Below the pieces are notes generated by a model, which did no database searches, was not told where the DNA came from, and worked only from the letters and a program-made list of their open reading frames with translations. A stretch of 46,037 bases of DNA from sequence record PZ445465.1, one strand, 5' to 3'. The position numbers and the translations under genes were made by a program. Origin of the DNA: a phage. This document shows, one piece after another, positions 5,572 to 8,403 of the stretch (position 1 is its first letter; each line of letters starts with the position of its first letter).

Positions 5572-6180
5572 TTAATCATCAAGTTTCACGCCGGGAATTT
5601 TGCCTGCTGCGATGGCTTCATAAATTAGCTTAGCCTCATCCTCGCGCTTGTAATCTTGCGCTACCATTTCTAATACCGCGCAGATAGATTCAAGTACAGC
5701 CTCATGCTTCCTTTCTGCTTCTGTGCGAAATGGGATGAAAACATCCTTATTGGATGGGGTTATTGCGTAGTAAATCTCACCAGATGGTCTGATAACTATT
5801 TTTTCGCCATCAAGACCAATAACCTTGACTTTTCCCCATGACGTTCCGTTGCTGATATACTCACATTCACACCCAACTGGCGGCAGTCCTTCTCCGTTCC
5901 ATGCTGAATTTTTCGATGCTGCGAGCGCTGCTTTGTATTGCCAATAGGTTACTATCGACTCCTTATGGTCGGAAGATAATGGCGTAGCCCATTCTTCTCC
6001 ATACCAGAAATGCACAAGGCTATTGCCAGTGTGGTGTTTCCATGAGAACCCTTCGTAGTGTGGGTCATTCGTGTCCCATACGCACAGTGAACCGTCATTA
6101 TCTTGAGTAATTGACAGCGCGTTTTGAGGCCACCCACCACGCTTAGGCAATTCTTGAACTAACAGGTCGATAAGTTTCAT
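5572..6180 (-). CDS. hypothetical protein (202 aa)
   Basis: ATG at 6180 with GGAGA RBS; last gene of a leftward four-gene cassette; no recognised domain. Confidence 0.6.
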   Translation of the reverse strand: MKLIDLLVQELPKRGGWPQNALSITQDNDGSLCVWDTNDPHYEGFSWKHHTGNSLVHFWYGEEWATPLSSDHKESIVTYWQYKAALAASKNSAWNGEGLPPVGCECEYISNGTSWGKVKVIGLDGEKIVIRPSGEIYYAITPSNKDVFIPFRTEAERKHEAVLESICAVLEMVAQDYKREDEAKLIYEAIAAGKIPGVKLDD

Positions 6181-6859: not shown

Positions 6860-6889
6860 CGTTTGATGTAGATACTATGCACCACCACT

Positions 6890-6920
6890 CAATCTACGTC
6901 AATAGCCATTGTGATAGAAT
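6890..6920 (+). promoter_or_regulatory. promoter region for the lysis genes: motif CAATCTACGTC plus extended -10-like TGTGATAGAAT
   Basis: motif at 6890-6900; TGTG-ATAGAAT at 6910-6920; strong RBS AGGAGG and ATG 6947 downstream; region is divergent toward the leftward cassette. Confidence 0.4.
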
Positions 6921-6946
6921 TAATCATTATTTGAACAGGAGGCAGA

Positions 6947-7225
6947 ATGAAACTATCGCAACGCGGCATGGAGGTGTTTGGAATTACCGATGCCGTAGAT
7001 ATATCGCCTTACATCACCACTGAGACAACACAGAATCAGTTTGATGCGCTGACAAGCCTTGCCACCGACATCGGCATTGACTCGTTCCGCAAATCAACGC
7101 TTCTGAAGAAACACAATCTCCGCTGCTTCTCATGTGTCGTCGCGCATTTCATCGTGTGGGGTGAGAAGACTGGCGACAAAGCAAAACGCAAGGCTGAAAA
7201 AGAGGTTTACTGGTATGGCTATTAG
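6947..7225 (+). pseudogene. truncated GH24 (T4/P22-type) lysozyme remnant, C-terminal portion only
   Basis: 92-aa ORF containing QNQFDALTSLATDIGIDSFRKSTLLKKHN, the conserved GH24 C-terminal lobe motif, but lacking the N-terminal catalytic segment; overlaps the intact endolysin start. Confidence 0.5.
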
Positions 7226-7679
7226 CAAAAACATGAAGGCGTTTCTGGATATGCTGGCGTACAGCGAGGGCACTGATAACGGGCGGCAGAAAACCAATAA
7301 TCATGGTTATGATGTGATTGTTGGCGGCTCACTGTTTACCGACTATTCCGATCACCCGCGCAAGCTGATTAGCCTGCCTAAGCTGGGCATCAAATCCACT
7401 GCCGCCGGGCGCTATCAGGTGCTGGCTAAATTTTATGATGCGTACAAAAAGCAACTGCGCCTGCCTGACTTCTCCCCCGCGTCACAGGACGCTATCGCAA
7501 TGCAACTAATCCGTGAATGCAAAGCCACCGCCGATATTGAGACTGGTCGCATTGCTGATGCTATCCATAAATGCCGCTCCCGCTGGGCTTCATTACCGGG
7601 CGCTGGCTATGGTCAGCATGAGCAGAAGCTGGATAAGTTGATTCAGGTATACAAAGAGGCTGGCGGAGCTGTGGCATGA
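7215..7679 (+). CDS. R: endolysin, lambda R-type lytic transglycosylase
   Basis: MKAFLDMLAYSEGTDNGRQKTNNHGYDVIVGG...DYSDHPRKL...WASLPGAGYGQ closely matches lambda R; start ATG 7215 within track ORF 7134..7679. Confidence 0.85.
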   Translation: MAISKNMKAFLDMLAYSEGTDNGRQKTNNHGYDVIVGGSLFTDYSDHPRKLISLPKLGIKSTAAGRYQVLAKFYDAYKKQLRLPDFSPASQDAIAMQLIRECKATADIETGRIADAIHKCRSRWASLPGAGYGQHEQKLDKLIQVYKEAGGAVA

Positions 7680-7915
7680 AAAAGCTAAGCAACTGGCTGC
7701 TCGGCGCGTGGATTTCATTCTGCTCACTATTGCAGCTATGGCCTGATGCAATGATGCACGTGTGGGTAATGATGCCGGACGACCTGAAAGCGGCGCTACC
7801 GCCAATCGTGGTCAAAGGTGTAAGCTACTCCATCATGCTGGTTGGTATTCTCGGAAAAATGCACGGCATGAGGAAGGAGAACCGGAGGCTGCGCAATGAT
7901 GTCAATTCTCGCTAA
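7676..7915 (+). CDS. lysis-associated membrane protein (possible holin)
   Basis: 79-aa ORF between endolysin and spanins; ATGA overlap with the endolysin stop; two hydrophobic segments and a charged C-terminus. Confidence 0.35.
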   Translation: MKKLSNWLLGAWISFCSLLQLWPDAMMHVWVMMPDDLKAALPPIVVKGVSYSIMLVGILGKMHGMRKENRRLRNDVNSR

Positions 7916-8387
7916 ATACTGGCGACCACTGGCAATTATTATAATTGTTGTCTCTGGCGCGTTGTGGGCGCGTAGCGAAATCATCAGCTACGGCGACCAA
8001 CGATACGCAGAAGGCAAATCCCAAGCAATCGCCGAACAGAAGGCCGCAGACGAACAAGAGGAGCAACGACGCAATGCAGAACTGCAAAAGATTCAGGCTG
8101 ACGCACAGCAAAGGATTGACGCTGCGCGCAATGATGCTGTCAATGCTGCTGCTAAGTCTGGCAGGTTGCAGCAACAGCTCGCAAATATCCGCAAGCAGCT
8201 CGTCGGATATTCCACCGCTGAGTCCATTGGCAATCCAGCCGCAGAAACCGGAGTTTTGCTTGGAGACGTGCTCGGCAAATCTGTCGAAAGAAATCGACAA
8301 CTGGCAGATTATGCTGACAGGGCAAGAGAGGCAGGATTAGCGTGTGAGGCGCAGTATAATTCGCTGCGTAATAAAAAAGCCCCGTGA
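7896..8387 (+). CDS. Rz: i-spanin (Rz-like)
   Basis: N-terminal TM LAIIIIVVSGALW followed by a coiled-coil region rich in Q/A/E; follows the endolysin. Confidence 0.7.
   Translation: MMSILAKYWRPLAIIIIVVSGALWARSEIISYGDQRYAEGKSQAIAEQKAADEQEEQRRNAELQKIQADAQQRIDAARNDAVNAAAKSGRLQQQLANIRKQLVGYSTAESIGNPAAETGVLLGDVLGKSVERNRQLADYADRAREAGLACEAQYNSLRNKKAP
8131..8340 (+). CDS. Rz1: o-spanin (Rz1-like lipoprotein) embedded in Rz in the +1 frame
   Basis: MMLSMLLLSLAGC lipobox (LAGC) followed by a Pro-rich mature region; lies entirely inside the Rz ORF. Confidence 0.6.
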   Translation: MMLSMLLLSLAGCSNSSQISASSSSDIPPLSPLAIQPQKPEFCLETCSANLSKEIDNWQIMLTGQERQD

Positions 8388-8403
8388 TGGGGCTTGTGTT
8401 TAA
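8376..8403. terminator. bidirectional rho-independent terminator
   Basis: hairpin AGCCCC-GTGAT-GGGGCT flanked by A-run and T-rich tract, between convergent genes. Confidence 0.6.

Follow-up and report, generated by a model that had tools for sequence, protein, structure and literature searches.

What might a 92-residue, lysozyme-like gene be doing directly ahead of a complete endolysin gene? The question is raised by the lysis region of phage sequence record PZ445465.1, whose 46,037 nucleotides, analysed as a whole, are referred to here as the window. The gene, ORF92 (open reading frame of 92 codons; positions 6947–7225, plus strand, ATG start; PHROG 10457), belongs to a Skatevirus-like siphophage whose DNA is ~99% identical over the lysis region to that of Escherichia phages Bas79 and Bas78. 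A preliminary description had presented it as a truncated GH24 lysozyme remnant and as the footprint of an endolysin module replacement. The comparisons reported here indicate an internally deleted and, by all appearances, catalytically dead GH24 derivative, and we favor, with a probability of roughly 0.6, the reading that ORF92 is a domesticated pseudo-lysozyme that assists lysis without catalysis, and neither debris nor a second endolysin.

Homology to the C-terminal lobe of GH24 (T4/P22 gp19-type) lysozymes is readily detected. Against the Pfam profile PF00959 (Phage_lysozyme), ORF92 scores 40.7 bits (E = 3.6e-10), above the gathering threshold of 22.3, with residues 19–78 corresponding to profile positions 55–114 of 125. 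A phmmer search of the PDB (E = 3e-9) places residues ~19–79 on residues ~70–131 of GH24 enzymes of 146–149 amino acids (aa), P22 gp19 (2anv) among them, with 6et6, 8app and 9kbs also matched; in the best-scoring longer PDB chains, residues 19–79 align to the equivalent stretch at ~107–178. The lobe core so delimited (residues 19–78; 7001–7180, plus strand) carries the pattern QNQFDAL...KSTLLKKHN...F..W, and the preliminary claim that the ORF keeps the GH24 C-terminal lobe is borne out. Over its full length ORF92 matches phrog_10457 (E = 3.5e-41), a group of 95 positions that the short family has to itself in PHROGs.

The remainder of the protein reveals where the missing part was located. A hidden Markov model (HMM) of full-length GH24 enzymes matches ORF92 in two blocks, HMM positions 1–22 and 65–140. 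The first of these covers a remnant of the N-terminal A-helix, residues 1–12 (MKLSQRGMEVFG, beginning MKLSQRG; 6947–6982, plus strand), which align to the N-terminus MKLSQRGIDLIK of full-length relatives and include a helix at residues 5–11 in the AlphaFold2 (AF2) model; residues 13–92 align to the C-lobe. ORF92 and full-length GH24 are thus homologous at their N-termini as well, and ORF92 is the product of an internal deletion of ~50 codons, not of N-terminal truncation. The earlier statement that the N-terminal catalytic segment is lacking thus stands for the catalytic residues and fails for the position of the loss, which is internal and spares the A-helix.

What has been removed is the catalytic Glu, Asp and Thr (the equivalents of E11, D20 and T26 in T4 lysozyme, T4L), together with the β-hairpin. 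In alignments to P22 gp19 and other GH24 lysozymes, a comparison proposed in the preliminary description, the three columns are gaps in ORF92 and hold E, D and T in P22 gp19 and the nearest full-length relatives, which rules out a complete catalytic core. Across 155 full-length sequences the catalytic Glu column is 99–100% Glu, and 13/13 short-family members lack it; the Asp/Cys and Thr columns of the GH24 triad (E-x8-D/C-x5-T) are both deleted in the short family as well. A second, small deletion has taken the conserved G-L (G128-L129) of the GL..RR..E motif. Substitutions are found in the cleft: Asn88 (equivalent to T4L Q105), which is Asn in 99–100% of the 155 enzymes, is D, S or A in all 13 short members, the aromatic residue at 87 (Y/F) is T or A in all 13 (ORF92 itself having T-D for the Y/F-N pair), and Arg132, the first of the RR pair and invariant in full-length enzymes, is K, Q, I or L in 12 of the 13, being retained in locus L040. 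Core positions are kept (QxQFDA, S97, LL, N104, F115, W118, R133 and E136), and the short family has conserved features of its own, namely a DIS motif, T87, D92 and a Y[WY]YGY tail. On this pattern of loss and replacement, ORF92 would be expected to lack muramidase activity. A split, two-gene lysozyme was considered and rejected, the best match of a GH24 N-lobe HMM to a six-frame translation of the whole window having an E-value of 0.43.

A CxxC motif (C60 and C63; 7124–7135, plus strand) is invariant in the short-family alignment. It is present in 74% of a 35-sequence comparison set (8 database homologues and P22 gp19 included) and in most of the nearest full-length GH24 enzymes of Klebsiella phages, other GH24 sequences having D..G. 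Since it is common to the short family and these nearest relatives, the motif predates the deletion. The Klebsiella-phage enzymes that carry CxxC in place of D..G (L044/L074) are presumably active.

These features sit uneasily with existing annotation. In GenBank Skatevirus genomes and in PHROGs, members of the ORF92 family are labelled 'endolysin', 'lysozyme' or 'endolysin/glycosidase', and the record of phage Skate adds that the protein 'has Ex5Dx8T motif'. The residues concerned (E9, D15 and T24) have a non-canonical spacing, the reverse of that in the triad, and are not conserved in the divergent type-B alleles described below, which have K, N, E, S or R there. The labels imply enzyme activity, whereas the sequence evidence argues for a non-catalytic family, and ORF92 would appear to be mis-annotated as an endolysin. 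Literature searches found no prior description of the short family as a pseudoenzyme or dead lysozyme in such cassettes. A paper on 'two endolysins' in S10 (PMC9677904) was set aside, since the Jerseyvirus cassette that it describes is unrelated.

Structure prediction points to a single lobe. The AF2 model of ORF92 is a compact, all-helical domain of six helices, with a predicted local distance difference test score (pLDDT) of 96.3 and a predicted template modeling score of 0.88 from a multiple sequence alignment (MSA) of 40 sequences; 11 short-family sequences alone return the same helices at pLDDT 75. The two-lobe GH24 fold, with its cleft between the lobes, is not reproduced. Foldseek aligns the model with the helical lobe in GH24 structures (superpositions include 8app, 9kbs, 3hde and 2anv), covering about half of each target, with template modeling scores of 0.7–0.8 on the query side and 0.35–0.5 on the GH24 target side. 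The C-terminal subdomain of T4 lysozyme is discontinuous in sequence, comprising residues 75–164 plus 1–12, and folds autonomously (bioRxiv 10.1101/353649); by alignment, the A-helix and C-terminal subdomain retained in ORF92 seem to correspond to this same folding unit. The T4 lysozyme CTF and LCTF constructs (residues 1–12 plus 60/75–164) have the same topological content but were engineered from a distant GH24 member, whereas ORF92 occurs naturally, as a gene under selection. Neither a transmembrane domain (TMD) nor a signal peptide was found in ORF92, its longest hydrophobic run being ~12 residues (CFSCVVAHFIVW); the grand average of hydropathy is –0.32 and the isoelectric point 8.6. Identity as a holin or antiholin was rejected on the lack of a TMD and the globular helical domain predicted by AF2.

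The origin of the short gene can be traced in related phages. Comparison of the locus, likewise proposed at the outset, uncovered a full-length GH24 gene of 144–145 aa at the same position in 42 related viral contigs (L043–L084); in GenBank, same-locus full-length genes occur in Klebsiella phages and a few Salmonella and E. coli phages. The sibling enzymes are 49–51% identical to ORF92 and have the signature KHN-x-x-C-x-x-C in common with it. At these loci the full-length gene is directly followed by a DUF7940 holin (57–69% identity) and Rz (55–62%)/Rz1, with no R gene, the gene for a lambda R-type endolysin that adjoins ORF92 in the window. Endolysin module replacement is supported because siblings carry full-length GH24 at the same locus without R, and the comparison supports a view of ORF92 as a GH24 lysozyme derivative whose catalytic job would have passed to another enzyme. 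A query of ORF92 plus R is matched, for 80% or more of its length, by 139/139 phage-database records with the short gene, and, with ~70 of these being seszw laboratory derivatives, ~69 independent isolates are represented. We envisage an ancestral Skatevirus-like cassette of GH24 lysozyme, DUF7940 holin and Rz/Rz1, into which a second muralytic gene, the R-type transglycosylase, would have entered between lysozyme and holin. The now redundant GH24 gene would then have lost ~50 internal codons in situ, those for the catalytic N-terminal subdomain with Glu, Asp, Thr and the β-hairpin, leaving the A-helix and the C-terminal helical subdomain.

A replacement footprint of this kind could be mere debris, and the selection data speak against that part of the preliminary description while leaving the replacement origin in place. 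The ratio of nonsynonymous to synonymous substitution rates (dN/dS) was estimated by the pairwise Nei–Gojobori method (NG86), with confidence intervals (CI) from a codon bootstrap, over 36 loci of the window's own allele type (type A; 35 distinct sequences). ORF92 is under strong purifying selection, with a dN/dS of 0.119 (95% CI 0.063–0.185), a pairwise value that ignores phylogeny and recombination; it is similar to that of the holin (0.134), with R at 0.035 and Rz at 0.282. Constraint is concentrated in the lysozyme-like core (residues 19–70, dN/dS 0.07), and the N-terminal 18 residues are the least constrained part (0.33); the C-lobe of the full-length Klebsiella-phage enzymes gives 0.13. 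All type-A (n = 36) and type-B (n = 7) loci are intact at 92–93 aa. Type-B alleles are only 52–55% identical to type A, yet have the same length and the same two deletions, and 32 residues, among them C60, C63, D33 and W71, are invariant across both types; within type B, dS is saturated and dN is 0.12–0.23. A pseudogene or decaying remnant was rejected on the dN/dS of 0.119, far from neutral, and the intact loci. Two natural frameshift variants (P0029 and P0033) were considered as signs of relaxed constraint and discarded: R and Rz are likewise truncated or absent on the contigs concerned (ENA ERZ1948695/7), the frameshifts are probably assembly indel errors, and they were not used as evidence.

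The two allele types differ in a sharply bounded island. When window positions 6864–7225 are compared with L003 4915–5282, nucleotide identity is 92–97% in the promoter region, 52–73% in the ORF92 coding sequence and 93–97% in R. Types A and B (54% aa identity) would thus appear to be two old alleles, exchanged as a precise one-gene cassette with frame and length kept.

Beyond these alleles, the 92–98 aa architecture is conserved down to ~50% identity, with the short gene strictly first in the lysis cassette at every locus seen and always accompanied by a complete muralytic enzyme, either R or a GH108 protein. The latter occurs in a related 45-kb metagenomic phage (L088, 4001–5414), with the order short GH24-like gene (98 aa), GH108 plus PG_binding_3 endolysin (171 aa), DUF7940 holin and spanins. 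The short member of L088 keeps the CFQC motif and a C-terminal EREIYYYGY tail, and the gene appears to have outlasted a further endolysin exchange there. Because the Y[WY]YGY tail is kept in L088, it is a feature of the protein and not a by-product of the overlap with R. The short gene has also been retained in laboratory strains: at least 58 seszw genome-reduced mutants from a CRISPR study (PMC9825161), down to 36 kb, keep ORF92 and R unchanged with neighboring genes deleted. This retention is weak evidence, because the targeting may have passed over known essential or lysis genes.

Short lysozyme derivatives were also seen elsewhere. An unrelated short contig (L087 120–425; JGI 3300049733) encodes a 101-aa protein, P0084, that matches phrog_10457 (E = 1e-19) and likewise has the A-helix joined to the C-lobe, with 'TADIGID' replacing 'YNIGxG'; PHROGs holds another short GH24-like family, phrog_7910, of ~96 positions. 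Lysozyme derivatives without a catalytic lobe may, on these matches, be more widespread.

ORF92 heads a compact lysis operon on the plus strand, with four further genes, and it overlaps the next. Its stop codon and the start of R share 11 nt, and R (7215–7679, plus strand) encodes a lambda R-type lytic transglycosylase of 154 aa, the catalytic endolysin of the cassette. It belongs to phrog_90 (endolysin) and matches 3d3d/1am7 (E = 4.3e-62, residues 3–153 to 4–153), with the catalytic Glu in SEGT (SEGTDNG) conserved, so that the overlap with the start of a complete lambda R-like gene noted in the preliminary description is confirmed. From the stop/start arrangement, translation of ORF92 and R may be coupled. 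ORF92 has a Shine–Dalgarno (SD) sequence, AGGAGG (6937–6942, plus strand), 4 nt before its ATG, the GGAG core of which is conserved in related loci; that of R, AAGAGG (7200–7205, plus strand), lies inside the 3′ end of ORF92, 9 nt before ATG 7215. Upstream is an extended –10 element (6912–6920, plus strand; TG at 6912–6913, TAGAAT at 6915–6920), kept as TGnTA[GA]AAT in 12/12 aligned related loci with either a short or a full-length GH24 first gene; sequence and conservation suggest promoter function. A consensus scan found no canonical σ70 –35/–10 pair on the plus strand. Of the ribosome-binding site and promoter previously proposed, the former and a conserved extended –10 are present and a canonical –35/–10 pair is not; the proposal that a protein may still be made gains indirect support from the conserved promoter and ribosome-binding site together with purifying selection.

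Further observations concern the sequence around these signals. The 87-nt intergenic region holds promoter-like elements back to back, with TTGACG-17-CATAGT (6874–6902) on the minus strand facing away from the plus-strand extended –10, and its motif CAATCTACGTCAA is conserved in most of the distant relatives aligned. In 34/36 type-A loci the R frame is free of stops for 36 codons upstream of ATG 7215 (7107–7214); the open stretch is 54 codons in L003–L005 and 68 in L040–L042, some of the latter having an upstream ATG in the R frame that gives ORFs of 199–211 aa. The open frame may reflect chance, or an N-terminally extended or fused R isoform. For an ORF92–R fusion by programmed frameshift, no slippery site or other support was found.

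Downstream of R, the cassette is completed by a holin and a spanin pair. The holin gene (7676–7915, plus strand) encodes a 79-aa, two-TMD class II holin (Pfam DUF7940, E = 1.1e-9; phrog_13249 holin, E = 3e-52), and the homologous gene of phage Skate is annotated as a class II holin. An Rz-like i-spanin of 163 aa (7896–8387, plus strand; Pfam DUF2514, E = 1.7e-30) agrees with the annotation of Skate and Bas79. Embedded in it, in the +1 frame of Rz, is a putative Rz1-like o-spanin lipoprotein (8074–8340, plus strand; ATG at 8074) with an LSLAGC lipobox, as suggested by the Skate annotation. A terminator scan places a bidirectional intrinsic terminator at the operon end (8377–8395, both strands), at the same place as the Skate terminator. 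Several related loci have an extra 140–190 nt between holin and Rz (L004, at 5950–6120; L008, L009, L011, L022, L039, L016 and L035–L038). The Rz start is shifted from 3449 to 3591 in L008, L009, L011, L022 and L039, and in L004 the insertion is called as a 56-aa ORF. Where this variable insertion is present, the holin has 76 aa rather than 79.

Taken as a domesticated pseudo-lysozyme, the 10.5 kDa ORF92 product would be the first of the late lysis transcript and, having neither TMD nor signal peptide, probably soluble and cytoplasmic, where it would act as a non-catalytic lysis accessory. Our preferred guess is a protein–protein role, such as self-association or binding to the holin/endolysin machinery, over glycan binding, because cleft residues are replaced and new family-specific residues conserved. 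Translation of ORF92 would probably also deliver ribosomes to the overlapping endolysin start.

Several observations weigh against this interpretation. It is only operon position and selection that point to an accessory role in lysis as such, and the selection estimate is subject to the limits of pairwise NG86 given above. The high AF2 confidence is partly due to full-length homologues in the MSA, as the drop to pLDDT 75 indicates. The ORF92 allele does not vary in step with R, holin or Rz: type B (54% identity) adjoins R at 95–97% and, in L004, a 99% identical holin, which argues against a tightly co-evolving interface. In a lab-evolved Salmonella phage mutant, seszw_100L (L091, 1501–2186; MZ375313.1, a record described as the complete genome of a mutant clone), ORF92 is short of 1 nt at codon 56/57 and reads into the R frame, so the gene may be dispensable in culture; a 46-nt deletion in the same record truncates R after 43 residues. 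Lastly, the loci compared include that of phage swi2 (L030; H49), whose 'lysin2', a member of the ORF92 family, has been called an active lysin and promoted as an antibacterial on a viable-count reduction of ~1 log, in vivo and in vitro (PMC8185280). In those assays the 10 kDa product carried a trigger-factor tag of 52 kDa, the effect had 0.01 < P < 0.05 and no peptidoglycan assay was included (PMC8185280), and because the active site is missing the data are insufficient to establish enzymatic activity.

The absence of co-variation would also suit a co-opted function outside lysis, such as host takeover, counter-defence or superinfection exclusion, riding on the lysis promoter. An exchangeable allele island (52–73%) between flanks of 92–97% is a pattern often seen in host-interaction genes, and GH24 domains have been reused non-lytically elsewhere, the SpmX muramidase domain being among the fold matches. 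However, the gene is first in the lysis cassette at every locus seen and nowhere else, a late lysis promoter would be odd timing for takeover or defence, and no matches to defence-related features were found in the searches made, which did not extend to PADLOC. We regard such a function as unlikely.

Less probable again is an inert remnant kept as a translated leader, valued for its ribosome-binding site, the endolysin SD and re-initiation, with the protein itself idle. The 11-nt overlap, the SD of R inside ORF92, the ATGA-type or short overlaps throughout the cassette and the weak constraint on the first 18 residues are all as such a leader would have them. A leader needs an open frame only, yet core dN/dS is 0.07 and 32 residues are invariant across alleles 52–54% identical; the YYYGY tail and core are kept in L088 despite a different downstream start and enzyme; and the substitutions specific to the short family (T87, D92 and the DIS motif) are themselves conserved.

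That ORF92 is a genuine second endolysin, a 92-aa active muramidase working with the R-type transglycosylase, is very improbable: the GenBank and PHROG labels, the Skate motif note and the swi2 titer reduction would favor it, but the canonical triad is deleted, the cleft Asn and aromatic residue are replaced, the Skate residues are misspaced and lost in type B, no N-lobe exists elsewhere in the window, a complete R or GH108 enzyme is always present, and the swi2 effect of 1 log came from a 52-kDa trigger-factor fusion with no peptidoglycan assay.

The favored reading, a non-catalytic lysis accessory, can be set beside known systems. GH24 lysozymes supply its ancestry, ORF92 being homologous to their A-helix and C-terminal lobe and standing at the genomic position of the siblings' full-length endolysin; it differs from these enzymes of ~145 aa in its length, in having no catalytic N-terminal subdomain, in its replaced cleft residues and partly deleted GL..RR, and in its own conserved motifs and tail. 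Gp1 of mycobacteriophage Ms6, as reported by Catalao et al. in 2010, is a small chaperone-like protein whose gene lies just ahead of lysA and overlaps it, and which reportedly binds LysA for Sec-dependent export. In both cases a small soluble protein is the first product of the cassette, its gene ends beyond the start of the endolysin gene, and a helper role without enzymatic activity has been proposed. The two are unrelated in sequence and fold, the Ms6 host is Gram-positive-like, and ORF92 occurs with endolysins of two unrelated types. SpmX of Caulobacter/Asticcacaulis (6h9d in the fold search) is a GH24 fold under selection for a non-lytic role, but it is a bacterial membrane protein that keeps both lobes and the catalytic cleft, unlike the phage protein ORF92, which has no catalytic lobe.

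A more specific version, which we find possible but doubtful, would make the phrog_10457 short family a new class of non-enzymatic lysis factor, acting alongside the DUF7940 holin/spanin machinery regardless of the type of endolysin. Such a factor might set lysis timing or organize endolysin release, and, after the holin has opened the membrane, its CxxC pair might serve as a switch that responds to redox state or metal; were this true, differences in host or partner specificity would account for the divergent, exchangeable alleles.

If ORF92 is a pseudoenzyme, the labels that the gene carries in PHROGs and in well over a hundred phage genomes would be misdirected, as would any enzybiotic work built on them. 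Experiments are feasible in Bas78/Bas79, on E. coli K-12 with O16, and in the Salmonella phage seszw. ORF92 would represent a natural case of subdomain-level domestication of the T4-lysozyme fold, and a dead lysozyme kept by selection at the operon head through at least two endolysin exchanges would point to an unrecognised accessory function in the lysis of Gram-negative hosts by phages.

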